Shown: positions 36,888 through 50,416, numbered from the stretch's first letter. The stretch: DNA of 64,000 nucleotides from a bacterium (GCA_035402825.1 DAONDZ010000001.1:172839-236838); one strand, 5' to 3'. Made by a program: numbers and translations. The notes: generated from the sequence alone by a model not told the origin.

Positions 36888-36992
36888 GTGCTCTTCCGAG
36901 AGAGGATATATAAACAATTAAATTATTAATGAAACAAAGCAACGGACAATATTTTCGGCATTGATAAATTAATATTACTTTTTATAAAAAAA
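36888..36992 (+). repeat. Junction J1 (attL-like): degenerate core, element left arm and promoter
   Basis: gtgctct-tccgagagaggatatataaacaa...cattgataaattaatattactttttataa aligns with 38310-38416, including an identical 29-mer. Contains TTGATA, 16 nt spacer, TATAAA (36961-36988). Confidence 0.6.
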
Positions 36993-37118
36993 AGTCAATT
37001 AATTTAAAATTATAGTTTTATAAAATAATTATCTCTATTTTTAGAGATTTTCTCAGTTCTCGCTATTACTGAGTGGCATGTGTTATAATATGAATACTAA
37101 GTATTAATTTTGTTTTAT

Positions 37119-38216
37119 ATGAAATCTAAAAAAGCCTTTACTCTCATTGAACTCCTCGTTGTGATTGCCATCATTGGCATCCTCGCTACTATTTCCGTTA
37201 TTGCTTTAAACAATGCTCGCGCTAAATCGCGTGATGCTAAAAGAATTGGAGATATCAAGCAAGTCTCAACTGCTTTAGAGCTTTTCTTTAATGATAAAAA
37301 TCGTTATCCGACTGTGGAAGAATGGAATACCGGACAGATTTTTTCTACTACTACCGGCGCTACCTCGACTTATATGCAAATCATTCCAGCCGCCCCAACG
37401 CCTAACGATGGCTCTTGCACAACTGGACAAAACACTATTAGCTATACTCCAACACTCGATGGAGCTTCCTATACTGTCTCTTTTTGTTTAGGCAATACTA
37501 CTGGGGCCCTTGATTCCGGACCGAAGTGCTTGACTCCTGGAGGCGTTTTGGATGTAGATTGTTCAATCACTATTCCTGCCGCCCCTAGCTTTGCTTGTGG
37601 CACTGATAGTGTGACTTATGAAGGTGAAGTCTATCCTACTGTTTATATTGATAATACTGGTGGCCACAATTTGAGCCTTCCTGGCCAATGTTGGTTCGCC
37701 AAAAACCTCAATGTGGGAACTATGGTTGCTGGTGCTGCCAATCAAGCTGATAACGGTATTATAGAAAAGTATTGTTATAATGATAATACTTCCAATGAAT
37801 GTGCTACTGATGGCGGTTTGTATCAATGGGATGAAGCTATGCAATATTCCGTGGCTGAATCGGCTCAGGGCATTTGCCCTGACGGGTGGCATTTGCCGAC
37901 TGACGCAGAACAAAATACCTTGGATCAAAATTTAAATGACACCACTTGTAATGCTAATAGAACTGGAGATTGGGGTTGTGCTAACGCCGGTACTAAATTA
38001 CAGGACGGTGGGACTTCTGGACTTAATGTTCTCCGAGCCGGCACTCGTTATATCAATGCGGCGTTCTACGCTCGAGGGGTGTACACGATTTTTTGGTCAT
38101 CGTCTATTAGCGGTTCGGCCGCCTGGGGTCGGAATGTGACCACTAACAACGCTGCCGTTTACCGCAATTCTTATGACCGAACCACCGGCTATTCTGTGCG
38201 TTGTCTTCAGGACTAA
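37119..38216 (+). CDS. Type IV pilin-like protein with a C-terminal FISUMP-type domain (paralogue 1, not matched by the TR)
   Basis: KAFTLIELLVVIAIIGILA prepilin-type N-terminus. GGLYQWDEAMQY...GICPDGWHLPTDAEQNTL...YSVRCLQD. ATG 37119 preferred. Extended -10 TGtTATAAT at 37081-37089. Confidence 0.8.
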   Translation: MKSKKAFTLIELLVVIAIIGILATISVIALNNARAKSRDAKRIGDIKQVSTALELFFNDKNRYPTVEEWNTGQIFSTTTGATSTYMQIIPAAPTPNDGSCTTGQNTISYTPTLDGASYTVSFCLGNTTGALDSGPKCLTPGGVLDVDCSITIPAAPSFACGTDSVTYEGEVYPTVYIDNTGGHNLSLPGQCWFAKNLNVGTMVAGAANQADNGIIEKYCYNDNTSNECATDGGLYQWDEAMQYSVAESAQGICPDGWHLPTDAEQNTLDQNLNDTTCNANRTGDWGCANAGTKLQDGGTSGLNVLRAGTRYINAAFYARGVYTIFWSSSISGSAAWGRNVTTNNAAVYRNSYDRTTGYSVRCLQD

Positions 38217-38248
38217 TTCGACTATTTTGATCTTTTGGAAGGCCGAAT

Positions 38249-38267
38249 CACTAGAATATTTCTAGTG
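38249..38267 (+). terminator. Hairpin downstream of paralogue 1
   Basis: cactagaa / tat / ttctagtg. No strong T run, so terminator function is uncertain. Confidence 0.35.
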
Positions 38268-38273
38268 GTATAA

Positions 38274-38399
38274 ACAAAAAGAGAACTGGCACAGGCCAGT
38301 TCTCAGAAAGTACTCCTCCGAGAAGAAATATCGAAACATTTAAACGAAATTGTTGAGGAAATTAAACTTTGGTCGATGTTTTTGACATTGATAAATTAA
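38274..38399 (+). pseudogene. 3'-terminal remnant of a serine recombinase gene spanning junction J2
   Basis: Reads TKRELAQASSQKVLLREEISKHLNEIVEEIKLWSMFLTLIN*, compared with NKRELATASSPKVPLREKISKRFNEIIGEIKRWARFLDECPF* at the end of the 43659-45236 recombinase. Nothing upstream of it is recombinase-like. Confidence 0.65.
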
Positions 38400-38415
38400 T
38401 ATTACTTTTTATAAC
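38388..38415 (+). promoter_or_regulatory. Candidate promoter in the element left arm
   Basis: TTGATA, 16 nt spacer, TATAAC. Identical 29-mer at 36958-36986. A perfect TTGACA also sits at 38382-38387. Confidence 0.4.
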
Positions 38416-38489
38416 TATAAAAGTCAACAAAGTTAAAATCCTCTTTTGTTTATTCAAAAACCTAATTAAAATTTACTCCCACTATTGTC

Positions 38490-38499
38490 GGGGGGGGGG
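38490..38499 (+). repeat. G10 homopolymer tract in the promoter region of the DGR target gene
   Basis: tcGGGGGGGGGGcagaaaaTGtTATAAT. The tract ends 10 nt upstream of the -10 hexamer. Confidence 0.9.
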
Positions 38500-38506
38500 C
38501 AGAAAA

Positions 38507-38515
38507 TGTTATAAT
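38507..38515 (+). promoter_or_regulatory. Extended -10 element (TGtTATAAT) upstream of the DGR target gene
   Basis: The same TGtTATAAT is found upstream of paralogue 1 (37081-37089). Confidence 0.5.
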
Positions 38516-38551
38516 AAAACTAGATTAAGCTAATTATTAATTTATTTTAAT

Positions 38552-39697
38552 ATGTTAAAGAGAAAAGCCTTCACTCTAGTAGAACTATTGGTAGTAATAG
38601 CCATCATTGGCCTATTAGCTACTCTATCAGTCATTGCTCTAAATAGTGCTAGAGCTAAGTCTAGAGATGCTAAGAGAGTAGCTGATGTTAAACAGATCTC
38701 TACGGCTCTAGAGCTATTCTTCAATGATGCTGGCAGATACCCCACTGATCTAGAATGGGCTAGTGGCTCTTTAGAGTATAATGGTCAGACCTATCTCTCT
38801 ATTATCCCTTCTGCCCCTACCCCTGCTGATGGTAGCTGTGACTCTACTACCAACTCTTTTTCTTATACCCAGGATAATAGTGGTGAATCATATACTCTCA
38901 CCTTCTGTACTGGTGGAGTAGTGGGTTCTCTTACTGCTGGTGAGCTTTGTGCTACCCCGGGTGGGATGGCGGGGTGTGGGGGAGGCGGGGGCTGTATTCT
39001 TGATTGTACTAACAAAAACTGTGGTGATGATGGCTGCGGTGGTAGCTGTGGTGTTTGTACCGGCAATGATGTCTGTACTAATGGTACCTGTACTACTCCT
39101 CCTTTTGCTTGCGGAGACTCTGTCTCCTATGGCGGTGAATCATATCCCACGGTTCTGATCGGAGCCCAGTGTTGGTTTGCTAAGAATTTAAATGTTGGGG
39201 ATATGGTGACCGGGGTCACCCCTCAGTCAAACAACGCTATTGTAGAAAAATATTGTTATAATGATGACGCTTCTCATGAATGCGCCACCTACGGTGGCCT
39301 ATACCAATGGGATGAAGCTATGCAATATTCTGTCACCGAAGGGGCCCAAGGTATTTGTCCTGACGGTTGGCATATCCCAACTGACGCTGAACAAAATACT
39401 TTAGACCAAGGTTTAAATGATACTACTTGTAATGCTAATAGAATTTTAGCTTGGGACTGTGCCAATGCCGGTACCAAATTACAGGCTGGAGGTACTTCTC
39501 ATTTTGAAGGCCTCTTGGCCGGCTACCGCAATACCAATGGGTCGTTCAACGATCAAGGGACGTACGCGCTCTTCTGGTCATCTACTATTAGTGGACCGGA
39601 TGCCTGGGATCGGCTCTTGTACACTGGCTACGCGACCGTTCGCCGCGGTCATGATGACCGAGCCTACGGCTTTTCCGTGCGTTGCCTTCAGGACTAA
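38552..39697 (+). CDS. DGR variable (target) protein: type IV pilin-like N-terminus, Cys/Gly-rich linker, FISUMP-type C-terminal domain
   Basis: KAFTLVELLVVIAIIGLLA; CGGGGGCILDCTNKNCGDDGCGGSCGVCTGNDVCTNGTCT; GGLYQWDEAMQY...GFSVRCLQD. The last 178 nt form the VR. Confidence 0.9.
   Translation: MLKRKAFTLVELLVVIAIIGLLATLSVIALNSARAKSRDAKRVADVKQISTALELFFNDAGRYPTDLEWASGSLEYNGQTYLSIIPSAPTPADGSCDSTTNSFSYTQDNSGESYTLTFCTGGVVGSLTAGELCATPGGMAGCGGGGGCILDCTNKNCGDDGCGGSCGVCTGNDVCTNGTCTTPPFACGDSVSYGGESYPTVLIGAQCWFAKNLNVGDMVTGVTPQSNNAIVEKYCYNDDASHECATYGGLYQWDEAMQYSVTEGAQGICPDGWHIPTDAEQNTLDQGLNDTTCNANRILAWDCANAGTKLQAGGTSHFEGLLAGYRNTNGSFNDQGTYALFWSSTISGPDAWDRLLYTGYATVRRGHDDRAYGFSVRCLQD
39518..39695 (+). other. 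DGR variable region (VR)
   Basis: 178 nt aligned without gaps to TR 40277-40454. There are 16 mismatches, each opposite a TR adenine. Confidence 0.9.
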
Positions 39698-39700
39698 TTC

Positions 39701-39727
39701 GACTATTTTGACTATTTTGACTATTTT
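39701..39727 (+). repeat. Three tandem copies of gactatttt just after the target stop codon
   Basis: gactatttt gactatttt gactatttt. Paralogue 1 has one copy in the same place (taattcgactattttga is shared). Confidence 0.85.
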
Positions 39728-39752
39728 TCCGCCTCGTGTAAGCGAGGCGGAA
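39727..39752 (+). promoter_or_regulatory. GC-rich hairpin downstream of VR (candidate DGR target-recognition cruciform and/or terminator)
   Basis: ttccgcctcg / tgtaag / cgaggcggaa: a 10-bp perfect stem. With a t-g closing pair the loop becomes GTAA (GNRA-type). Confidence 0.55.
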
Positions 39753-39768
39753 TTAATTAAATTTTTCT

Positions 39769-40113
39769 ATGGCTACCTATGATAATTTGCCGGTGTATAA
39801 AGCCAGTTATGATTTACTGCTAGAAATATTCACTTTCAGTAAGAACATGGACAAAGAATATAAATATACCATTGGAGAAGATTTGAAAAAAGAAACCACG
39901 GCCATGATTACCAATATCTATCGCGCCAACTGCAACCAAAATAAAAAAGAGTTAATTCAAAGTGGTCGGGAAAATTTGGAAGTCATCAGATTATATTTAC
40001 GCCTAATTAAAGATTTGAAACAAATAAATTTGTTAAAATTTGTAAAGATTAATGAAATTATTGAGTCAATTTCCAAGCAATTAAATTTTTGGCAAAGTGC
40101 CATGAAATCATAA
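39769..40113 (+). CDS. avd: DGR accessory variability determinant (four-helix-bundle, 23S rRNA IVS protein family)
   Basis: 114 aa helical protein (PVYKASYDLLLEIFTFSKNMDKEYKYTIGEDLKKETTAMITNIYRAN...) sitting between target and TR as in canonical DGRs. Confidence 0.75.
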   Translation: MATYDNLPVYKASYDLLLEIFTFSKNMDKEYKYTIGEDLKKETTAMITNIYRANCNQNKKELIQSGRENLEVIRLYLRLIKDLKQINLLKFVKINEIIESISKQLNFWQSAMKS

Positions 40114-40276
40114 TGGGCCAGAGTCGTCATCGGTTACGGCCAGGGCGAGCGTGCCTCACTAGTCCAATAGTCCACTAAATTTTCTAAATTTAGTAATTGA
40201 CGGGGCAACCTGTCATTCTGCTGATTTTTTAGATAATATCAAATCAGCCGAAGAGGTTAGCGATTATTATAAAAGA

Positions 40277-40454
40277 GCCGGCAACCGCAATACCAATGGG
40301 TCGTTCAACAATCAAGGGACGAACGCGAACTTCTGGTCATCTACTATTAGTGGACCGGATGCCTGGAATCGGAACTTGAACACTGGCAACGCGACCGTTA
40401 ACCGCAATCATAATGACCGAGCCAACGGCTTTTCCGTGCGTTGCCTTCAGGACT
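40277..40454 (+). other. DGR template region (TR)
   Basis: Encodes AGNRNTNGSFNNQGTNANFWSSTISGPDAWNRNLNTGNATVNRNHNDRANGFSVRCLQD in the VR frame, with 15 AAY codons. Flanked by hairpins at 40178-40198, 40220-40248 and 40461-40487. Confidence 0.9.
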
Positions 40455-40508
40455 GGTCAAAAGGAGCCATATATCAATGGCTTCTTTTATTTTACTAAAA
40501 TATTTTTT

Positions 40509-41684
40509 ATGTCCGACAAACTTCTGGTTGACCTTTTTCAAGCCTATTACGACGCCCGACGCTATAAAAGAAATACAATGAGCGCTCTTAACTTTGAGAT
40601 TAATTTGGAGCAAAATATATTTGAATTGTATCGGGAGATAAAAAATAATACTTATCAAATTAGTCCCAGCCTAGCTTTTATTATCTTTGACCCGGTGCAG
40701 AGAGAAATTATCGCCTCGCCCTTTCGGGATCGAGTCGTGCATCACCTGGTTTTTAATTATATCAACCCCATTCTTGAAAATCTCTTTATTTCTGACAGTT
40801 ATAGCTGTCGCCAAGGCAAGGGTATTAGCTACGGAGTTAAGCGAGTCGCTCATTTTGTCCGCTCCAGTTCGCAAAATTATAGAGTTGATAATTATATTCT
40901 CAAATTGGATATTTCCGGCTATTTTATGAGTATTAACCAATCTGTTTTATATGATAAGGTAGAAAATTATTTATTAAGGCATAATGTTGATTACCCCTTT
41001 GACCTAAAATTAATTTCAGCCCTGCTAAAGAGAATTGTTTTTCACGATTATATTAAAGATTGCGTTATAAGAGGTGGAAAGACCAACTGGAAAAAATTAC
41101 CCCGCAACAAGAGTCTATTTTTCACGCCCCCGGGTTTTGGTTTGCCCATTGGCAATTTAACCTCGCAATTATTTAGTAATGTTTATTTAAATGATTTTGA
41201 CCATTATATTAAGCGGACTTTGAAATTTAAGTATTATGGTCGTTATGTCGATGACTTAATCATTATTGACGGTAGTAAAGAAAGGCTCCAAATAGCTATG
41301 GCCAAAATTGCGGAATATTTATCAACGAATCTAAACTTAAAAATTCACCCCAGAAAAATCTATTTACAGCCCTATGCCAAAGGCGTTAATTTTTTAGGCG
41401 GGATTATTAAACCCCACAGAATTTATGTCCGCCACCGGACTAAAACCAGTTTTTATCGCTCAGCGACTAAGGCTAATAATATTCTGAAGAATGTAGATGT
41501 AGAAAGGAAAGCCCTCAGGAAAATTTTATCCAGTTTTAATTCCTATTTAGGGGTGTTTGGGCAATATCAGACCTATAATTTACGCCGTAAAATATTGGAC
41601 AACAAGCTATCCTCGGATTTTTGGCGTTATTTTAGACTTGGGAAAGGTGAGTCAAGATATAGAAAAATTGTTTTAAGAAAATAA
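40509..41684 (+). CDS. DGR reverse transcriptase
   Basis: LPIGNLTSQLFSNVYLNDFD (the IGxxxSQ motif typical of DGR RTs) and YGRYVDDLIII (YxDD). ATG 40509 chosen because the longer track ORF (40413) starts inside the TR. Confidence 0.9.
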   Translation: MSDKLLVDLFQAYYDARRYKRNTMSALNFEINLEQNIFELYREIKNNTYQISPSLAFIIFDPVQREIIASPFRDRVVHHLVFNYINPILENLFISDSYSCRQGKGISYGVKRVAHFVRSSSQNYRVDNYILKLDISGYFMSINQSVLYDKVENYLLRHNVDYPFDLKLISALLKRIVFHDYIKDCVIRGGKTNWKKLPRNKSLFFTPPGFGLPIGNLTSQLFSNVYLNDFDHYIKRTLKFKYYGRYVDDLIIIDGSKERLQIAMAKIAEYLSTNLNLKIHPRKIYLQPYAKGVNFLGGIIKPHRIYVRHRTKTSFYRSATKANNILKNVDVERKALRKILSSFNSYLGVFGQYQTYNLRRKILDNKLSSDFWRYFRLGKGESRYRKIVLRK

Positions 41685-41690
41685 TTATAC

Positions 41691-42306
41691 TTATCCCCAG
41701 CAAAATGCTAGCAAATTTAAATATTTAAAAAAGTTTTTCAAATTCCCAATAAATTCACCCCTTAACCTTACCGCTAATTTATGCTATGATACATTCAGAC
41801 TTAATCAATAAAAATATATAACCTCGGGACCCATTGTTGAATAGATGTCGCTCGCATGAAACGCAAAATAAAAAAATAAAACTCATAAAATAATATCCCC
41901 TGTAAATTAGCAAAGTCTTTCTTTGCCAATTGAAACTAATTAACCAGCATTTGTCCGTGCTCGGTTTTTTTGTTTTGGCAAAGACTATTAAATTTCGTCG
42001 TCGCCTGTTTAGATAGCGAAACAGGTTAGTTGATTTCTTTGGTGTAAACATAAGCGTGTAGTTTGGTTTTAGCCTATTAGTGGTACTTGCCCGTCGCTAA
42101 TGGCTAGTTCTGTTATTAATTTCTCATTTTTGACCGTCCCCCAAGCATTGTTTTTTAGTTTTTTTTCGGCGAGGCTTGTCCGCTCGCCGAAAAAATAAAA
42201 ACAAGCTGGGGGCGGTAAATGAGATTTTAGACAAAAGTAGTGTCCGTTTGTCGTGTGCCTCTATTAGACTTGACTATAGGCACACTTAACGCCGTTATTA
42301 AACTCT
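41691..42306 (+). other. Conserved structured non-coding region upstream of Rep (copy 1): promoter, terminator-like hairpin, nested stem-loops, candidate replication origin
   Basis: Aligns with 47040-47682. TTAACC, 17 nt, TATGAT at 41762-41790. Hairpin plus T run at 41944-41976. Nested structure 42122-42224 (tctcattt...aaatgaga enclosing ttttttcggcgag/ctcgccgaaaaaa). Hairpin gtgtgcct...aggcacac at 42253-42285. Confidence 0.55.
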
Positions 42307-43098
42307 ATGGAAATTAAACCACGAGTTTATCGGCAGAAGCTGGTAGAGTCGGGTGATTATGTGGAAATATATGATTATGAGAATTTCATTAAAATTAATC
42401 AAAAGAGAAAACGAAGAAGAAATACAACCAAGAGACCTAAATTTATCGGCCCACCTACTTATTTAGATGTGCTTTGTCGAGAAACAAAAAATGGTTTTTC
42501 TCTAAGGCGAACTCGGTCAAATATTGTTAGATTGGTAAATTCTAACCCCGATTTAAAAGTATTTATTACTCTCACCTTTGATAGCCATAAATTCGGGGAT
42601 AAGCCGTTTACTGATTTTAAGGAATGTAATTTGATATTTTCTAATTTCATTAAACGACTAAAAAGGAAATATCCCGATTTAAAATATTTGGCCGTGCCTG
42701 AATTTCAGAGCGACTATTATCACCGCACCAATATTAGAAAAGAATTTGGCGGTAATATTCACTATCATTTATTGTCTAATTTGCCGTTTATTGAAAATAC
42801 TCAATTAGAAAAAATCTGGGGCTACGGATTTATTAAAATCAATAATATCCGACAGGTGTCTGCTGTCGGTCCGTATGTGGCTAAATATGTCGGCAAAGAA
42901 TTGTTTGACGGTCGTTTAAATGGGAAAAAGAAATTGTTTTATTCTCGCACTCTTAATCGCTCTAAAATCATTATTACCTACTCAAAAATAAAAGAATATT
43001 TAAACAACTTAAAATCACCCCTCAAGCTTTTGCACGAGACAACTTACAAGTCCGAGTATCTCAGCAGAGCTCGCTATCGGCTCTATAAACAAGGATAG
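42307..43098 (+). CDS. HUH-superfamily rolling-circle replication initiator (two-tyrosine type), copy 1
   Basis: Motif 1 VFITLTF, motif 2 NIHYHLLS (HUH), motif 3 GPYVAKYVGKE (Y-x3-Y). Confidence 0.7.
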   Translation: MEIKPRVYRQKLVESGDYVEIYDYENFIKINQKRKRRRNTTKRPKFIGPPTYLDVLCRETKNGFSLRRTRSNIVRLVNSNPDLKVFITLTFDSHKFGDKPFTDFKECNLIFSNFIKRLKRKYPDLKYLAVPEFQSDYYHRTNIRKEFGGNIHYHLLSNLPFIENTQLEKIWGYGFIKINNIRQVSAVGPYVAKYVGKELFDGRLNGKKKLFYSRTLNRSKIIITYSKIKEYLNNLKSPLKLLHETTYKSEYLSRARYRLYKQG

Positions 43099-43138
43099 CA
43101 AAACTGATTTTGTTAATCATACGTTCATCTAAAATATA

Positions 43139-43288
43139 ATGACTATTGAGGCTCTTAAAAAATCAATAGTAGGTCGTGGGCGACAGTATTCCGATGACGA
43201 ATTGGAGACAATTAGACGCGACTTATACCAACTGGCTCATCTGCTAGTCGAATATTATTTTAATCAGCAAAAAATATTAATAAAATAA
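43139..43288 (+). CDS. Small helical protein (49 aa), YSDDELE-RRDLY family
   Basis: MTIEALKKSIVGRGRQYSDDELETIRRDLYQLAHLLVEYYFNQQKILIK. Conserved in E_C (48518-48673). Confidence 0.5.
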   Translation: MTIEALKKSIVGRGRQYSDDELETIRRDLYQLAHLLVEYYFNQQKILIK

Positions 43289-43298
43289 ATAAAAAATT

Positions 43299-43454
43299 AT
43301 GATGAGTATAAGTAAATTAAGAAAATTGTTAAGCGAAAAGGCAAATGAATACAGCGAAGAAGAACTAGAAGAAATGCGGCGAGATATTTATACATTTGCT
43401 AATCTAGCCTTTGATATTTATAAAGAGAATCCCAGGATATTAGATAAATATTAA
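43299..43454 (+). CDS. Small helical protein (51 aa), paralogue of the preceding ORF
   Basis: MMSISKLRKLLSEKANEYSEEELEEMRRDIYTFANLAFDIYKENPRILDKY shares the YS-EELE-x-RRD-Y-x-A-L core. Confidence 0.45.
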   Translation: MMSISKLRKLLSEKANEYSEEELEEMRRDIYTFANLAFDIYKENPRILDKY

Positions 43455-43461
43455 AGCGATA

Positions 43462-43658
43462 TTGTAAAAATAAAAATATATGTTATTATCCTTAATGGAC
43501 ATAACTTATAATAGCGGAAAGCTACTATTTTCTTACATCATAATGACGGCAGATAAGTCGTTTTGATATAAAGGGAGCAGTGGCTGTTTCAACAAGGCTT
43601 TCCGCTAAGTTGTGTCCAACAGTTCACTGCTCTCTTTTTATTATTAACTTTTAACCCT
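43462..43658 (+). promoter_or_regulatory. Promoter plus about 165-nt structured leader of the recombinase gene (copy 1)
   Basis: TTGTAA, 16 nt, TGtTATTAT (43462-43489). P1 ggacataactta/taagttgtgtcc; P2 agcggaaagc/gctttccgct; long-range gagcagtg (43575-82)/cactgctc (43625-32) followed by tctcttttta. Confidence 0.5.
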
Positions 43659-45236
43659 ATGCAAAAAGGAATAATCTATTACCGAGTTTCAACCGAAGAT
43701 CAGGCTCAAACTGGTGTTAGTTTGGAGCAACAGAAAAACGCTTGTCTTGATTACGCTCAAAAGAATGATATTGAAATACTAAAATTATTTCACGATGACG
43801 GAGTGTCTGCTAAAACTACCAAAAGAGCAGGACTTCAAGAACTATTGGCGTATTGTAAAAAGAATCATAAAGAGATTGATTGTTTGATAGTCTATAAAAT
43901 TGACCGGCTATCTCGAAATGTAAAAGACTACGCCACGCTATTAATGGCTTTGGGCGAATTTAACATTAAATTCATATCTACCACTGAAACCGTTAACGAA
44001 ACTTCTAGCGGAAAATTAATTGGCACAATTATGGCCTCGTTCGCTCAATTTGATAATGATGTTAGGAGCGAAAGAGTGTCGGTCTGTATGCTCGAAAAAG
44101 CCAAGCAGGGAATCTGGTGCTTCAAGGCCCCATTCGGTTATCTAAACAGCCGTGATGAGCAAAATAGAGCCATTATAACCATTGATAAGAGTAGGGCCGA
44201 GATTATTAAAATGGCCTTTGAAAAGTTTGCTACAGGATTATATAAAATGGAGGAAATACGGATAATGATGATTAAGGCCGGATTTAAAACCTGGCGAGAT
44301 AAAGAAATAAGCATCCAAAGTGTATTTAGAATTTTGATTGATAAGTTTTATATTGGAGTTATGACGATTAAAGGTCAAGAATATCAGGGGAGCCACGAGG
44401 TTTTTATTAATGAAAACACTTTTTATAAATGTCAAAAATTAATCCGCACTTCTAAACGAGGCGACAATATTGCTTTTAAACGCACTAATGAAATGTTCCC
44501 TCTCAGAAATTTTATTTTATGCCCCTCCTGTGGTCGTCCTTTTACTGCTTGCTTGTCCCGCAACTCCCGGGGTAATTATTACCCGTATTATAGATGTTAT
44601 AACAAAAACTGCCGAGGTTATAAATCAATATCTAAAGATAAATTGGAAAATAAGTTCAGCGATTATCTTAAAAGTATAGCGCCTGATCCTTATTTTGCCA
44701 AAGATTTAAGATTAATAGTTATTGAGGAATGGGAGAAAAAAATTAAAAACTATAAAGGCAGTTTGGTTGATGCCAAAAATCAGTTAGAAGTATTGGAATT
44801 AGAAAAGTCCAAATTGATAGAAATGAAGAAAAAGGACCTGCTTGACGACAATGATTTTAAAGAAGAAATGTCTAAAGTGAAGATTAAAATTGCTGAGAAA
44901 CAGTCTACCCCAGCTGAGAATATTCCTAATAATTTTGACATTAAGAAACAATCCAAAAAAGTTTTTGATATCATTCCCGACCTTGATAAATTTTATAATA
45001 GTCTTGGTTATTATGACAAACTTAAATTTCAGAGTTTGATTTTTCCCGAAAAGGTCTATTTTGATTTTTCAGAAAGTCGAACAGCTAAAATGTCGCTAAT
45101 ATTACAGAATAAAAGAGAACTGGCGACTGCCAGTTCCCCGAAAGTACCCCTCCGAGAGAAGATATCTAAACGATTTAACGAAATTATTGGGGAAATTAAG
45201 CGGTGGGCGAGGTTTTTGGACGAATGCCCATTTTGA
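43659..45236 (+). CDS. Large serine recombinase (integrase), copy 1
   Basis: Resolvase-type catalytic domain (IYYRVSTEDQ...VYKIDRLSRN), recombinase domain, zinc ribbon (CPSCGRPFTAC...YYRCYNKNC), coiled coil. Confidence 0.85.
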   Translation: MQKGIIYYRVSTEDQAQTGVSLEQQKNACLDYAQKNDIEILKLFHDDGVSAKTTKRAGLQELLAYCKKNHKEIDCLIVYKIDRLSRNVKDYATLLMALGEFNIKFISTTETVNETSSGKLIGTIMASFAQFDNDVRSERVSVCMLEKAKQGIWCFKAPFGYLNSRDEQNRAIITIDKSRAEIIKMAFEKFATGLYKMEEIRIMMIKAGFKTWRDKEISIQSVFRILIDKFYIGVMTIKGQEYQGSHEVFINENTFYKCQKLIRTSKRGDNIAFKRTNEMFPLRNFILCPSCGRPFTACLSRNSRGNYYPYYRCYNKNCRGYKSISKDKLENKFSDYLKSIAPDPYFAKDLRLIVIEEWEKKIKNYKGSLVDAKNQLEVLELEKSKLIEMKKKDLLDDNDFKEEMSKVKIKIAEKQSTPAENIPNNFDIKKQSKKVFDIIPDLDKFYNSLGYYDKLKFQSLIFPEKVYFDFSESRTAKMSLILQNKRELATASSPKVPLREKISKRFNEIIGEIKRWARFLDECPF

Positions 45237-45240
45237 TAAT
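45111..45240 (+). repeat. Junction J3 (attP-like hybrid between units E_B and E_C)
   Basis: aaaagagaactggcgactgccagttccccgaaa-gtacccc-tccgagagaagatatctaaacga.... The left half matches 50311-50350 and the right half matches 38317-38399. Confidence 0.65.
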
Positions 45241-45250
45241 TTTTTGGTGC

Positions 45251-45279
45251 TTGACTTTTCCTCAGAAAAGTGGTATTAT
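45251..45279 (+). promoter_or_regulatory. Candidate cargo promoter of unit E_C
   Basis: TTGACT, 17 nt, TATTAT. Confidence 0.5.
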
Positions 45280-45366
45280 TATATATTCAACAAATTAGAC
45301 TTACTGTTTAATTTTAGCTATAATAAAGGAATAATACAAGAGTAAATTTATACTAAAATTAACAAT

Positions 45367-45552
45367 ATGTTAAAAAATCAAGTGAATTCCAACGAAAATA
45401 AAGTTAACCTGATAAATGATATATATAATCAGGCTTTAAACGACATTGAAAAAATTAAAAAGGAAAGGGATAAGAAAATTAAGAATGTTCTGAAAGAAAT
45501 AGATAAAAAGCACGTAGCCAAGGCTCTCAGGGATATAAAAAATTCAAAATAA
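45367..45552 (+). CDS. Hypothetical K/N-rich small protein (61 aa)
   Basis: ORF only, with coiled-coil-like composition. Confidence 0.35.
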   Translation: MLKNQVNSNENKVNLINDIYNQALNDIEKIKKERDKKIKNVLKEIDKKHVAKALRDIKNSK

Positions 45553-45583
45553 TTTTTAATATTAAAAAATAACAATCAATTAT

Positions 45584-46969
45584 ATGAATATGGAAAATCA
45601 AGTCAAGGAATCCCCATTAGAAAAAGCTAAACGGCTAAAAGCCGAAAAAGAAAGCAAAGATCAGGCCAAAATCGAGGCTGAATCTTCCGCTAAAGCTGAA
45701 AAATTGGGGGCTCTTAATAGCCAAAAACAAGGACTAGAAAATCAGCTCGATGAAATTAATTCTAAAATTGAAGCCTCGAGGGGCGAAGCTCATGAAACTA
45801 GGGACACCATGCAAGAGGCTGGCCTAAATAAAGACGAGGAATTTAAAGGTGAATATAATTCCACCATTTCTGAAGTGGCTGGAAATTTAAATGAATTGAG
45901 AAATGAAAGAAATAGAATTAAGGCCGAGTTAGAGCAAATTAATTCTAATATTGAAAATTTTGAAGTCAACGAAGCTATTTCGGAGGGCAAAGAAGCTACT
46001 CAGGAAGCGGTTGAAACTGTTAATCAGGAAAACGAGCAGGCTATAACCCAAGTAGAAAATTATCCCGGTGCTGAAGCTGGGGATATTAAGGCTTCTCAGG
46101 AAATAGTGTCCGAAATAAACCAGGAGGTTAATCAGGTTGTTAAAAATTCTGAGAATAATGTTAAAGAAGTATCCGGTGAAAAAAAAGAGGAAAAAAAGGA
46201 AAAAACATTTGATTTTGATGATATTGCCAAAGAAATCACGTCTGACGTCGCCCATCTTTTAAATGAAGAAGATAAAAGACTGAAGATAGTAAAAGAAAAT
46301 ATTTTAAAAATGCCTAAAGCGAGCAAGGGAGATTATGAAAAAATTTTCGCGGAGGAAGCTGTTAAATTTGAAAGACGCCTCTATACCGTTAACAATTTAT
46401 TAGCTAAGTTAGAATATCCGATTAATAGACTTGCATATCAAGGGAAGTATGACCAAGATCGTGATAAAAATTTGAAGAGGCAGGAAGAATTGGTTAATTA
46501 CATTAATAATATCGCCAACACTAGCCCGGCTAGCCAAAAAGAAACGGAAATATTCAATATTTTGAGAGAAAAAATTGCAAAGGCATCAGACAAGGAGACT
46601 GCGGGAGAAAAAAAAGAAAAAACATTCGAAGAGGTTAGACAGGAAGTGGCGGTAGAAGTCGGTAATCTTGTCAACGCAGAAAGAAATAAATTAAGCGACG
46701 CAGAACTAAGAGTGCGTAATTTTCAAGGAGGCAAGGAAGAATATGAAAAATTAAGACATGATATTTATGGCATTCAATGGGATGCTCGCTACCTCGTAGA
46801 TATTGATGAAAAATTGGAACCTTTAAAAATTATTGCTACACAATCTGGGAAGTTGAAAGAATTTGACAAGATGCATCAGGATCAAACTATTTCTGATTAT
46901 AAAAATTTCAATAAAGTAGCTGGAGAATTGATAGAAGATTTGGACAAAAAGATGTCAAAAACATCCTAG
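45584..46969 (+). CDS. Acidic coiled-coil protein (461 aa) with an internal duplication
   Basis: E/K/N/Q-rich N-terminal half. Two related modules each begin GEKKE(E)K..KTF(D/E) (nt about 46176 and 46604). Confidence 0.6.
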   Translation: MNMENQVKESPLEKAKRLKAEKESKDQAKIEAESSAKAEKLGALNSQKQGLENQLDEINSKIEASRGEAHETRDTMQEAGLNKDEEFKGEYNSTISEVAGNLNELRNERNRIKAELEQINSNIENFEVNEAISEGKEATQEAVETVNQENEQAITQVENYPGAEAGDIKASQEIVSEINQEVNQVVKNSENNVKEVSGEKKEEKKEKTFDFDDIAKEITSDVAHLLNEEDKRLKIVKENILKMPKASKGDYEKIFAEEAVKFERRLYTVNNLLAKLEYPINRLAYQGKYDQDRDKNLKRQEELVNYINNIANTSPASQKETEIFNILREKIAKASDKETAGEKKEKTFEEVRQEVAVEVGNLVNAERNKLSDAELRVRNFQGGKEEYEKLRHDIYGIQWDARYLVDIDEKLEPLKIIATQSGKLKEFDKMHQDQTISDYKNFNKVAGELIEDLDKKMSKTS

Positions 46970-46999
46970 ATAAATTTTACAGGATTATAAAAAAACTAC

Positions 47000-47030
47000 A
47001 AAAACGCTTTTAAAAGGGCGTTTTTGTGTT
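47000..47030 (+). terminator. Intrinsic terminator after the E_C cargo
   Basis: aaaaacgc / ttttaaaagg / gcgttttt followed by gtgttt. Confidence 0.5.
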
Positions 47031-47039
47031 TAATAATAT

Positions 47040-47682
47040 TTATCCACAGCGAAATATTAGCAAAACTAATTATTTTAAAAAATTGTTAAAATCACTCGCA
47101 AAACCAGCCCTTAACCCGCCCTCAAAAATATGGTATAATATAGTTGGACTAAAATAAAAATAAACTAACGCTGGGAACCACGGTTGAAACGGTATAAAGA
47201 TTATTGTATGCGCTTCTAAATAAAATAAAACTCAAAAAATATTATCCCTTGCAAAAATTAGCAAAGTCCAGTCTTTGCCAATTTAAACTTTAAACCAACA
47301 TTAGGCCGATGTTCGGTTTTTTTGTTTTGGTAAAGAGTAGTCGTCGGTTAGCAGTCTTGCCGTTGCTAGCCGACGACCATGCCTGTTTAGTCTCTCGTCT
47401 TTGGCTAAGCAGGTTGGTAATTCCTTTTAGGTGAACATAAGCGTATGATCTTGATTTAGCCCATTAGCGGCGTTTGCCCCGTTGCTAGTGGCTTGTTCTG
47501 TTCTTTTAATTTCTCATTATTGACGCCGCCGGACTGGATTTTTTCTTTTTTCGGCGAGTTGTCTGCGAGCCGAAAAAGAAAAACCAGCCGAGGCGGTAAA
47601 TGAGATTTTAGACAGAATAGTTCCCAGTGTGCCGTCGTCATATTAGACTTGACTATAGGCACACTTAACGCCGTGATAACTT
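47040..47682 (+). other. Conserved structured non-coding region upstream of Rep (copy 2)
   Basis: TTAACC, 17 nt, TATAAT (47111-47139, with TG). Hairpin plus T run at 47295-47329. Nested structure 47512-47608. Hairpin gtgtgcc...ggcacac at 47627-47664 with the same loop, tattagacttgactat. Confidence 0.55.
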
Positions 47683-48468
47683 ATGGAGATTAAACCACGA
47701 GTTTATCGGCAAAAGCTGATAGAGTCGGGTGATTATGTAGAAATATATGACTTTGAGAATTTCATTAAAATCAATCAAAAAAGAAAAAAGAGAAGAAATA
47801 AAAATAAAATTAAAAAAGATACTAATGACGAGGATAAAGAAAACGAGCAAAACTTAAAAAGCCATTTTTCATTGAGGCGGAGCCGATCAAATATTATTCG
47901 GTTGGTAAATTCCAACCCCGATTTAAAAGTATTTATCACCTTAACTTTTGATAGCCATAAATTTGGGGATAAGCCATTTACTGATTTTAAGGAATGTAAT
48001 TTGATATTTTCTAATTTCATTAAGCGGTTAAAACGGAAATACCCTGAATTAAAATATCTGGCCGTTCCCGAATTTCAAAGCGATTATTATCACCGCACTA
48101 ACATCAGAAAAGAATTTGGCGGTAATATTCACTATCATTTGCTGTCTAATTTGCCATTTATTCAGAGCGAAGAATTAGAGAAAATTTGGGGCTACGGATT
48201 CATTAAAATCAATAATATCCGACAGGTGTCTGCTGTCGGGCCGTATGTCGCCAAATATATCGGCAAAGAATTATTTGACGGTCGCTTAAATGGAAAGAAA
48301 AAATTGTTTTATTCGAGGACTCTTAATCGCTCTAAAATTGTTATTACTTATTCAAGAATAAAAGAATATCTCAACAACTTAAAATCACCTCTCCAGCTTT
48401 TGCACGAGACAACTTATCAGGCCGAATATGTCGGCAGAGTTCGCTATCGGCTCTATAAACAAAGGTAG
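47683..48468 (+). CDS. HUH rolling-circle replication initiator, copy 2
   Basis: Same three motifs as copy 1 (VFITLTF, NIHYHLLS, GPYVAKYIGKE). Differs mainly in the basic, low-complexity residues 30-65. Confidence 0.7.
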   Translation: MEIKPRVYRQKLIESGDYVEIYDFENFIKINQKRKKRRNKNKIKKDTNDEDKENEQNLKSHFSLRRSRSNIIRLVNSNPDLKVFITLTFDSHKFGDKPFTDFKECNLIFSNFIKRLKRKYPELKYLAVPEFQSDYYHRTNIRKEFGGNIHYHLLSNLPFIQSEELEKIWGYGFIKINNIRQVSAVGPYVAKYIGKELFDGRLNGKKKLFYSRTLNRSKIVITYSRIKEYLNNLKSPLQLLHETTYQAEYVGRVRYRLYKQR

Positions 48469-48517
48469 CCTAGTTAATAAACTAAAGTTGAATACCGACC
48501 CATTCAATATTCAACTC

Positions 48518-48673
48518 ATGATTAGTTTGACAGTCCTTAAAAAATTAATAGTAAGCCGTGGCCGACAGTATTCCGATGACGAATTGGAGACAATCAGGCG
48601 CGACTTATACCAACTGGCTCATCTTTCGTTCAAGTATTATCTTAATCAGCAAAAAAAGCTATTGTCAAAATAA
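48518..48673 (+). CDS. Small helical protein, YSDDELE-RRDLY family (E_C copy)
   Basis: MISLTVLKKLIVSRGRQYSDDELETIRRDLYQLAHLSFKYYLNQQKKLLSK. The track ORF 48428 starts inside Rep; ATG 48518 is preferred. Confidence 0.45.
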   Translation: MISLTVLKKLIVSRGRQYSDDELETIRRDLYQLAHLSFKYYLNQQKKLLSK

Positions 48674-48852
48674 AAATATATGCTAATATCCTTAATGGAC
48701 ACAATTAAATTAAGGCATAGCAACTATTCTCAAATCATAATGACGGCAGATGAGTCGTTTTGATATAAAGGGAGCAGTGGCTGTTTCAGTTATGCCTTGC
48801 ATAATTGTGTCCGACAGTTCACTGCTCTCTTTTTATTATTAACTTTAAATTT
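48662..48852 (+). promoter_or_regulatory. Promoter plus structured leader of the recombinase gene (copy 2)
   Basis: TTGTCA...TAATAT. P1 ggacacaatta/taattgtgtcc; P2 aaggcata/tatgcctt (a different sequence from copy 1, but still paired); same conserved loop and same cactgctc-tctcttttt end. Confidence 0.5.
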
Positions 48853-50382
48853 ATGGCCAAGCAAAAAGGTATTGTTTATTACCGAGTTTCTACCGAAGAT
48901 CAAGCTCAAACTGGCATTAGCTTAGAACAGCAGAAAAATGCCTGCCTTGATTATGCTCAAAAGAATGAAATTGAAATCTTGAAATTATTTCACGATGACG
49001 GCGTGTCCGCCAAAACTACCAAAAGGGCAGGCCTTCAAGAGTTGCTGGCGTATTGTAAAAAGAATTACAAAGAGATTGATTGTCTGATAGTTTATAAAAT
49101 TGACCGCTTGTCCCGAAATGTAAAAGACTACGCTACCTTGCTTATGGTTCTTGGCGAATTAAACATTAAATTCATTTCCACCACCGAAACAGTCAACGAT
49201 ACATCGAGCGGAAAGCTTATTGGCACGATTATGGCCTCATTTGCTCAATTTGATAATGATGTGCGAAGTGAAAGGGTGTCGGTTTGTATGCTGGAAAAGG
49301 CCAAGCAGGGGATTTGGTGCTTCAAAGCCCCATTTGGTTATCTAAACAGTCGAGATGGGCAAAATAGAGCCATTATAACCGTTGATAAGGAGCGTATGCC
49401 CATTATAAAAATGGCCTTTGAAAAGTTTGCCACGGGTTTATACAAAATGGAGGAAATTAGGCAGATGATGATTAAGGCCGGATTTAAAACATGGCGAGAT
49501 AAGGAAATAAGTATTCAAAGCGTATTCAGGATTTTAATTGATAAGTTCTATATTGGCGTTATGACGATTAAGGGCCAAGAATATCAAGGCAGTCATGAGA
49601 TATTTATTAATGAAAATACTTTTTATAAATGCCAAAAATTAATCCGTACTTCCAAGCGAGGCGACAATATTTCCTTTAAACGCACTAACGAATTATTCCC
49701 CTTGCGAAATTTTATTTTATGTCCCTCTTGCGGTCGGCCTTTCACCGCCTGCTTATCAAAAAATCACCAAGGCAAGCTCTACCCCTATTATATGTGCTAT
49801 AACAAACTCTGCCGAGGCTATAAGTCCATATCCAAAGATAAGCTGGAAAATCAGTTCAGCGATTATTTGAAAAATATATCGCCTGATCCTGATTTTGCTA
49901 AAGCTTATCAAGTAATTGTGGTCGAGGAATGGGAAAAAGGCTTGAAAAACTATCAAAGCAGTCTGGCTAATATAAAAAATGAATTAGATCAGTTGGAAAT
50001 AGAAAAATCTAAATTAATTGAAATGAAGAAAAAAGAGCTTTTAGATGACGAGGATTTTAAAGAGGAAATGTATAGAGTAAAAGTTAAAATAGCTGATAAA
50101 CAAAATTTTCCAGCCGACAATATCGCCGATGATTTTGATGTTAAAAAAGAATCTAAAAAAATTTTTACCATTATCCCTAATTTGGATAAATTCTATAATG
50201 GATTAAATTATTACGAAAAAATTAAACTACAAGGTTTGATTTTTCCTGAAAAGCCGGTGTTTGATTTTTCCGAAAATCGAACCCACAAAATCTCGCTAAT
50301 ATTACAAAACAAAAGAGAGCTGGCAAGTGCCAGTTCTCCGAAAGTACCCCCAAGAGGAATCGAACCTCTATGGTCAGCTTAG
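48853..50382 (+). CDS. Large serine recombinase (integrase), copy 2; its 3' end runs antisense into tRNA-Arg
   Basis: MAKQKGIVYYRVSTEDQ..., collinear with copy 1 up to ...SSPKVP, then PRGIEPLWSA* encoded opposite the tRNA. ATG 48853 preferred. Confidence 0.85.
   Translation: MAKQKGIVYYRVSTEDQAQTGISLEQQKNACLDYAQKNEIEILKLFHDDGVSAKTTKRAGLQELLAYCKKNYKEIDCLIVYKIDRLSRNVKDYATLLMVLGELNIKFISTTETVNDTSSGKLIGTIMASFAQFDNDVRSERVSVCMLEKAKQGIWCFKAPFGYLNSRDGQNRAIITVDKERMPIIKMAFEKFATGLYKMEEIRQMMIKAGFKTWRDKEISIQSVFRILIDKFYIGVMTIKGQEYQGSHEIFINENTFYKCQKLIRTSKRGDNISFKRTNELFPLRNFILCPSCGRPFTACLSKNHQGKLYPYYMCYNKLCRGYKSISKDKLENQFSDYLKNISPDPDFAKAYQVIVVEEWEKGLKNYQSSLANIKNELDQLEIEKSKLIEMKKKELLDDEDFKEEMYRVKVKIADKQNFPADNIADDFDVKKESKKIFTIIPNLDKFYNGLNYYEKIKLQGLIFPEKPVFDFSENRTHKISLILQNKRELASASSPKVPPRGIEPLWSA
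50311..50350 (+). repeat. Junction J4 (attR-like): element right arm plus core, fused to the tRNA-Arg acceptor stem
   Basis: aaaagagagctggcaagtgccagttctccgaaa-gtacccc, then caagaggaatcgaacc (the tRNA T arm, antisense). Confidence 0.65.
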
Positions 50383-50416
50383 AAGGCTGGTGTTCTATCC
50401 ATTGAACTATGGGGGC
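50345..50416 (-). tRNA. tRNA-Arg (anticodon TCT)
   Basis: Reverse complement gccccca-ta-gttc...ccagc-ctTCTaa-gctga...agagg-ttcgatt-cctct-tgggggt-a. Position 72 gives a G1-U72 pair, and this end coincides with the island junction. Confidence 0.85.

Follow-up and report, generated by a model that had tools for sequence, protein, structure and literature searches.

A large serine recombinase family of small patescibacterial elements with a probable attachment site inside its own reading frame and two C-terminal isoforms

A stretch of 64,000 nucleotides from a bacterial genome (GCA_035402825.1, DAONDZ010000001.1:172839-236838), referred to here as the window, carries two genes for large serine recombinases (LSRs) in a row of small integrative elements beside a tRNA-Arg(TCT) gene. 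We consider it probable that these elements belong to a patescibacterial family in which the LSR targets the extreme 3′ end of tRNA genes, the attachment site attP lies inside the LSR open reading frame (ORF), and the enzyme exists in two isoforms. Sequence comparison shows that the crossover in attP falls in or adjoins the codon of Val496, 28-30 codons before the stop. DNA bearing attP, which may be a free circle or an internal junction of an array, encodes an enzyme of ~525 amino acids (aa) with a conserved amphipathic C-terminal helix. The copy at attR encodes a chimera of ~507 aa whose last ~10 residues are read antisense from the tRNA acceptor and T arms, and the detached tail remains intact at attL.

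Recombinase genes and the mapped crossover

From 36.9 to 50.4 kb the window holds a head-to-tail array adjoining tRNA-Arg(TCT), which consists of the elements E_B and E_C and a decayed one, E_A. The two LSR genes, the junction J3 between E_B and E_C, and the tRNA gene with its junction J4 are placed as follows.

43659-45236, plus strand: LSR copy 1, 525 aa; residues 1-497 from E_B and the last 28 codons from the left arm of E_C; long isoform with the helical tail
48853-50382, plus strand: LSR copy 2, 509 aa; adjoins the tRNA gene; chimeric tail PRGIEPLWSA and stop
45144-45150, no strand: core GTACCCC of J3; GTA is the Val496 codon; sole stretch in common with the tRNA junction J4
45151-45236, plus strand: left (P′) arm of E_C; swappable tail LREKISKRFNEIIGEIKRWARFLDECPF and stop; the first ~25-30 nt are the attP P′ half-site, with the conserved helix motif beyond
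50344-50416, minus strand: tRNA-Arg(TCT), integration target, B′ side; intact according to ARAGORN

Both copies contain a Resolvase domain (PF00239, E 1e-35 and 3e-36) together with PF07508 (Recombinase) and PF13408 (Zn_ribbon_recom), and Y7, R9, S11 and other residues of the catalytic domain are invariant in 35 and in 94 homologues. A coiled-coil insertion in the zinc ribbon is modelled as helices 344-391 and 397-419, and Foldseek matches the fold to the SPbeta, Bxb1, phiC31 and LI integrases (E 1e-19 to 1e-11). No tyrosine recombinase domain was found in the window's elements, where only serine-recombinase domains occur. The proteins of copies 1 and 2 are identical to the database proteins P0001 and P0004, respectively. 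As an earlier note made from the sequence alone had read them, the two ORFs are collinear to ...ASSPKV (Val496) and then diverge into copy-specific ends. Up to that point their proteins are 85% identical. Beyond Val496, copy 1 continues with PLREKISKRFNEIIGEIKRWARFLDECPF and a stop, and copy 2 with PPRGIEPLWSA, which comes from reading the tRNA acceptor and T arms on the opposite strand and stops in the anticodon loop.

The crossover could be mapped from relatives in free and integrated form. The long-form LSR P0052 is encoded on L001, a contig of 10,823 bp that lacks a tRNA gene and is, judging from an exact 30-nt overlap of its ends, a circular assembly. A second contig, L018 (11,164 bp), has a terminal direct repeat of ~126 nt, likewise encodes a long-form LSR, and is a circular permutation of an element integrated at tRNA-Glu in L019 (~90% nucleotide identity). 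When the two are aligned, two blocks abut at the single hexamer TGGTAG: attP in L018 reads ...CAATTCCTCTT-TGGTAG-ACCACTGTATTC, attL in L019 reads ...CAAATTTTC-TGGTAG-ACCACTG, and attR in L019 reads ...CCTCTT-TGGTAG-CCCCAACGGGATTCGAACC. This common core of 6 bp is situated 30 codons upstream of the long-form stop, and supports the earlier note's claim of a crossover within the ORF that swaps the last ~28 residues; the exchange precedes the stop codon and does not follow it. TGGTAG is the reverse complement of CTACCA, made up of two bases of the acceptor stem followed by the discriminator A and the encoded CCA. Cores of 7 bp in L012 (GTAGTCC) and of 10 bp in L024 occupy the same place at the tRNA 3′ end. 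Val496, encoded by GTA or GTG, is the sole nearly invariant C-terminal residue of the family, and its codon is complementary to the discriminator base and the nucleotide on either side of it, one of them being the first base of CCA.

In the window, GTAC alone is common to all three junctions, and by analogy with L018 and L019 the crossover is probably in or adjoining it. The motif GCCAGTTCnCnGAAAGTAC has three occurrences, which start at 38295, 45129 and 50329, where chance would give 0.01. The attachment core of the earlier note needs to be narrowed: the crossover does fall in the ORF, but the ~35-bp stretch that had been taken for the core is mostly P arm, with only GTACCCC being common with the tRNA side. 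This 35-bp repeat was rejected as an attP/attB core, as it mostly reflects P-arm homology from related recombinases and the true core is 4-10 bp. The note had also expected a circular element to encode the enzyme with the long helical tail, which is what the L001 and L018 contigs do, as do circles of E_B and E_C closed in silico (524 and 527 aa, respectively).

The same arrangement extends over the family. With copy 1 as the query, 244 homologues were obtained at E < 1e-20, and counts were made on the best 120 of them (38-100% identity); source names, where given, are Patescibacteria-group or unclassified bacteria. Among these 120, 104 fit the tail pattern x-R/T/G-G-I/F-E-P-L..., which is the antisense of a tRNA T-arm, and ~4 more do so by eye, while a helical tail with a common (D/E)-I-x-x-W is present in four (copy 1, P0052, P0057 and P0078). 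In ~33 of 48 family LSR genes in fetched loci, the stop codon lies inside an antisense tRNA gene that is itself intact (ARAGORN). These are mostly tRNA-Glu genes, and Arg, Ala, Met, Asn and Leu tRNA genes are also hit. None of 76 unrelated phage LSR genes from IMG/VR, distant enzymes (<=33% identity) that served as a negative control, stops inside an antisense tRNA gene. A scan of contigs with a single sequence as query returned 3 loci only. No intact homologue ends before Val496, although a few truncated or partial products do, and a few integrated copies are frameshifted (L005, L016 and L051). Nearly all database entries of this LSR family represent the chimeric integrated isoform, in which ~10 residues are tRNA antisense and not native protein. 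Separately, LSR genes at three loci (L013 9911-11530, L011 2-1462 and L026 9956-11530) have tails of neither kind, not helical and with no tRNA origin according to ARAGORN, such as ...PPIVANALPFLFGKSTY and stop; these may reflect degraded tRNA sites or other junction types.

The C-terminal tail and the attachment arms

Integrated elements have detached, intact tail arms at the expected place and on the same strand, 5-11 kb upstream of the integrated LSR, in nine cases (L004, L010, L012, L013, L019, L021, L022, L024 and E_B). They were identified by motif search and with two tail hidden Markov models, with E values of 1e-11 to 1e-17 among 38,644 peptides. Six further tail variants came from 1.84 billion representative proteins searched with a profile. 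By the Nei-Gojobori method, the proportion of nonsynonymous differences is below that of synonymous differences (pN < pS) in nearly all tail pairs, with dN/dS mostly 0.15-0.5. In the codons past the att half-site, dN/dS is 0.08-0.25 for the detached arms of L010, L012 and L013.

The residues that are kept form a regular pattern. Within the window's subfamily (11 tails), positions -18, -14, -10, -7, -6, -3, +3 and +4 relative to a Trp are hydrophobic in all tails, Glu at -4 is invariant, and the Trp itself is present in 10 of the 11. A second subfamily of eight tails, the LSR bodies of which are <50% identical, has the hydrophobic positions from -10 to +4 in common, almost fully conserved, and Trp in all eight. 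The resulting motif, h-N-x-h-h-x-E-I-x-x-W-x-x-h-L, has a hydrophobic spacing of 3-4 that fits an amphipathic helix. The sole decayed tail is that of E_A, the element without its recombinase. Taken at the level of codons and residues, these comparisons demonstrate selection on the tail, which is conserved in homologues of 45-65% identity, contrary to the non-conservation that the earlier note had named as grounds for refutation.

An AlphaFold2 model based on 94 sequences (mean pLDDT, the predicted local distance difference test score, 81.8) gives confident catalytic, recombinase, zinc-ribbon and coiled-coil regions, which end near residue 465. Helices are predicted at 480-490 and 504-520 within the low-scoring C-terminus, and residues 466-496 score low despite a deep alignment there. 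The tail helix thus appears to be tethered by a flexible stretch of ~35 residues. As a separate observation, an unrelated protein of 185 aa from another assembly, P0123, ends in the exact E_B tail VLLREEISKHLNEIVEEIKLWSMFLTLIN; a neighbouring gene there seems to run in frame into a detached tail arm at an attL.

Another reading would make the long tail an artefact, produced by read-through between tandem elements, or would trace its conservation to a DNA-level signal (an att half-site or a promoter) and not to the protein. In its favour, the window's long form exists only since E_C adjoins E_B, and the tail does begin with an att half-site of ~30 nt whose nucleotides are strongly conserved. 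Long forms on circular contigs without a tandem partner, a conserved motif 45-70 nt from the crossover, and amino acids kept while synonymous sites are near saturation make this reading scarcely credible.

The arms carry several signals at once. The P′ half-site takes up the first ~30 nt of the tail, so that about ten codons at the start of the tail are under constraint both as DNA and as protein. On the P′/B′ side, where the register was examined, positions 14-25 of the tRNA-side half-site (T-arm AATCGAACC) reappear in the P′ arm 5 bp further from the crossover. An offset of +5 bp is the best one in 5 of 7 P′/B′ pairs, which are partly related, with summed matches of 41/84 that 0 of 2000 shuffles reach. 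A 5-bp register shift of attP against attB has been described for LSRs (PMC3783163), and the shift in P′ thus supports the LSR as the enzyme acting on these sites. No clear dyad symmetry relates the P arm to the P′ arm, only 9-13 positions of 24 matching and without a consistent centre.

The P arm, in turn, contains a candidate host-gene signal, which occurs within both LSR genes of the window and, also on the minus strand, in the orphan P arm of E_A (38281-38304). The two inside the LSR genes are as follows.

45115-45136, minus strand: hairpin GAGAACTGGC-GACT-GCCAGTTC followed by a T-run; terminator-like; antisense in the copy 1 codons ELATASS; attP P arm
50315-50338, minus strand: element-borne hairpin and T-run; lies 6 nt past the tRNA-Arg 3′ end; antisense in the copy 2 ORF

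The first hairpin has a dG of -18.1, below every background window of the same ORF. Of the 16 integrated relatives, 15 have a strong hairpin with a T-run in the 45 nt past the tRNA 3′ end, and most free P arms have one as well. The relatives with the hairpin at the same position are L004, L007, L008, L012, L014, L015, L019-L024 and L027-L029; the stems differ widely in sequence while the structure is kept, and the energies are usually lower than those of all other windows taken from that ORF. The tRNA's own terminator hairpin is found in L019 and L012 on the host flank that was displaced. With the tRNA's terminator displaced and a hairpin and T-run located in the P arm, the element supplies a predicted replacement intrinsic terminator for the tRNA, which runs antisense through the codons Q-x-K-x-E-L-A-x-A-x-S. 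One short stretch would then serve as att arm, coding sequence and host-gene signal, a very tight overlay.

The tandem array, its cargo and the possible meaning of the swap

The remaining features of the array are the elements themselves and what is left of E_A.

38314-45147, plus strand: E_B, 6,834 bp; tail arm, diversity-generating retroelement (DGR; pilin-like target, bAvd and reverse transcriptase, RT), Rep 42307-43098, LSR body
45148-50347, plus strand: E_C, 5,200 bp; tail arm, ORFs of 61 aa and 461 aa, rolling-circle Rep 47683-48468, LSR body
38310-38399, plus strand: detached intact E_B tail, encoding VLLREEISKHLNEIVEEIKLWSMFLTLIN and stop; upstream, no recombinase body but only a remnant of ~90 nt
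38222-38309, plus strand: 3′-end remnant of the E_A recombinase gene (P arm); a perfect hairpin is still present at 38281-38304
36894-36970, plus strand: junction J1, decayed tail arm of E_A; stop after 12 codons, frameshift, Trp lost

The limits and lengths of E_B and E_C assume an exchange in GTAC. In both elements the gene order is tail arm, cargo, rolling-circle Rep (PF23343; phrog 'replication initiation') and LSR body, and only a pilin-like gene and the final ~90 nt of the recombinase gene remain of E_A. What the earlier note states about the sequence holds throughout on inspection, including that the left arm of E_B is an intact homologous tail with no recombinase upstream, where only the ~90-nt remnant lies, and that the left arm at J1 is degenerate. 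At J3 the P arm of E_B meets the P′ arm of E_C, which makes this junction an attP-like hybrid. The order of the array could stem from the integration of a two-element circle or from the entry of a second element into the tRNA-proximal junction. No exact match was found in a collection of 15 billion proteins for the 507-aa form that a single copy of E_B at the tRNA would encode. Contigs reached via the flanking host genes either contain this array too or end at the tRNA or J2. Such ends at the tRNA (L170 and L171, ~60 nt past the SpoU methylase gene) or near J2 (L172 and L173) are seen in independent assemblies of the same organism and are compatible with repeat-induced or population-level variation in array content.

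The cargo differs among relatives. E_B carries a complete DGR at 38552-41684, with a variable region (VR) at 39518-39695, a template repeat (TR) at 40277-40454, bAvd at 39769-40113 and RT at 40413-41684; all 16 TR-to-VR mismatches are at TR adenines. The protein that it targets is type IV pilin-like and has a Fib_succ_major domain at its C-terminus. A G10 homopolymer at 38490-38499 closely precedes a TATAAT-like box and the target gene of the DGR, which starts at 38552; it may represent a promoter tract subject to phase variation. Another pilin-like gene with a Fib_succ_major domain lies in E_A (37110-38216). Its 3′ end (38037-38214) is 72% identical to the DGR repeat, with mismatches that are not adenine-specific, and may be an old or orphaned variable region. 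In L018 (168-9757) and L001 (3231-9125), the cargo includes an AbiV HEPN protein, a ResIII helicase with an N6/N4 methylase, a tyrosine recombinase and an HTH_17-like protein. This defence-type cargo of the relatives stands in place of the Rep and DGR of the window, and none of it is found in the window's elements.

With respect to function, we infer that the helix is a functional part of the free-form enzyme, carried on its flexible tether, and that it most likely makes contacts with another subunit or a partner, through which the isoforms would differ in activity or preferred direction. The switch of directionality or activity that the earlier note suggested is plausible, and the proposition that the isoforms differ functionally at all appears to us about evenly balanced. 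In other LSRs, direction is set by coiled-coil contacts and by a recombination directionality factor (RDF) that binds the zinc-ribbon domain, and in phiC31 the RDF also contacts the acidic extreme C-terminus of the integrase. Given this control and the effect of C-terminal RDF fusions in other LSRs, a tethered C-terminal helix would be well placed to influence such contacts. The direction control of serine integrases is an active structural question and limits their use in genome engineering. At present, reversal of a serine integrase requires a separate RDF protein. A family in which the enzyme alters its own C-terminus upon integration would offer a simple and testable isoform pair, as well as tRNA-targeting LSRs with compact, well-defined att sites.

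Several points weigh against the proposed arrangement or against a role for the tail. The exact circular-form proteins of E_B (524 aa) and E_C (527 aa) are absent from the 15-billion-protein collection, and an empty attB was not found via the host genes of both flanks, so that excision of the window's own elements is conjectural. The E_B and E_C tails are 54% identical, against 85% for the LSR bodies. Residues 466-525 have a pLDDT < 50 in the AlphaFold2 model, which gives the tail no confident position. The pairs behind the dN/dS values and the +5 shift are few and partly related. Finally, L018-type elements, on which the mapping of the crossover is based, additionally encode a tyrosine recombinase and an HTH_17-like protein.

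Among other explanations, it is possible, if doubtful, that the integrase is self-inactivating, or 'suicidal'. The helix would be needed for stability or catalysis, the tRNA-tailed form would be crippled, and integration would lock the element in, with mobilisation only by a long-form enzyme supplied in trans from a tandem neighbour or an incoming circle. SSV-type integrases provide a precedent (PMC7253208), tandem arrays like that of the window retain one long-form copy, database copies are mostly of the integrated form, and the three frameshifted copies are integrated ones. Nearly all integrated LSR bodies are nevertheless intact ORFs across 38-89% identity, and just ~28 of 525 residues are exchanged, outside the folded domains.

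The tail could also be a dispensable passenger of genome compaction, where the overlap with attP saves space in elements of 5-11 kb, the isoforms are equal and a separate RDF sets the direction. The model predicts disorder or a lack of docking for the C-terminal 60 residues, cryo-electron microscopy maps of the SPbeta and phiC31 integrases show disorder at the C-terminus, the tails evolve faster than the LSR body, and every element has small unannotated ORFs that are potential RDFs, none of which could be named as one. We regard this as unlikely, as pN < pS holds in tail codons past the ~30-bp half-site, the Trp and the 3-4 periodicity are kept across subfamilies with bodies <50% identical, and the detached tail has stayed intact in nine integrated elements but has decayed in the defunct one.

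A more far-reaching version of the proposed isoform difference, in which the C-terminal swap is a direction switch encoded in DNA topology and acting without an RDF, seems distinctly unlikely to us. The long form from attP would integrate only, with the helix helping to set the coiled-coil lock, and the tRNA-tailed attR form, having lost the helix, would be licensed for attL x attR excision, or the assignment would be the reverse. If such a switch were true, the element would sense its own integration state via the sequence of its recombinase.

It is very improbable that, in part of the family, a co-resident tyrosine recombinase integrates at the tRNA and the LSR gene merely lies at the end of the element. 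Tyrosine integrases are the usual enzymes targeting tRNA genes, and the elements of L018, L019 and L003 encode Phage_integrase-family and HTH_17-like proteins. However, the window's elements lack a tyrosine recombinase, so that such an enzyme cannot explain the family-wide link between the LSR 3′ end and tRNA genes, which holds whatever the cargo; moreover, the core is just 6 bp and P′ has the 5-bp register shift typical of LSRs.

Relation to known recombination systems

The phiC31, Bxb1, A118/LI and SPbeta enzymes have the same domain order (Resolvase, Recombinase, and zinc ribbon with embedded coiled coil) and likewise a short attP/attB core with a zinc-ribbon-domain (ZD) motif 5 bp further out in attP. 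The family described here differs from them in that attP lies in the enzyme's own coding sequence, whereby integration alters the protein, and in that the target is a tRNA 3′ end and the P arm doubles as a putative antisense terminator. To our knowledge, attP is intergenic in the characterised LSR systems. Among the closest analogues are also the circles of Tn4451, which have a promoter for TnpX that is formed at the joint. A full-text literature search revealed, within the literature covered, neither an LSR with attP in its own coding sequence nor an LSR family dedicated to tRNA 3′ ends. Similar to the present elements, phiRSM has a serine recombinase on a rolling-circle element that integrates at a tRNA 3′ end, but its enzyme is of the small resolvase/invertase type and its attP lies between orf14 and orf15, not in a gene (PMC4471427).

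Free and integrated forms with different C-termini and different behaviour are also found in the mycobacteriophages BPs and Brujita, where attP is in the 3′ part of a gene (PMC4557955). In those phages it is the repressor gene that is split, by a tyrosine integrase, whereas here the recombinase itself is altered. The viral form in BPs and Brujita bears a C-terminal ssrA-like degradation tag. No such tag was seen on the long tails compared here, the extreme C-termini of which vary (...DECPF, ...TLIN, ...VEILE, ...TQTSF).

Two further systems bear on the isoform pair. Artificial C-terminal fusions of an RDF reverse the direction of LSRs (PMC5737554) and have served in cryo-electron microscopy studies; those fusions are man-made and carry a whole RDF, whereas here the addition is a natural helix of 28 aa, the presence of which depends on DNA topology. 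The SSV-type (type I) archaeal tyrosine integrases likewise have the site inside the integrase ORF, a tRNA target and a partitioned gene (PMC7253208). They use an unrelated tyrosine chemistry and their gene is cut into two large non-functional parts, whereas here replacement is confined to the last ~28 codons and every folded domain stays in the rest of the ORF. The LSRs of the window are thus an analogue of the SSV-type integrases in mechanism and not a member of that group.

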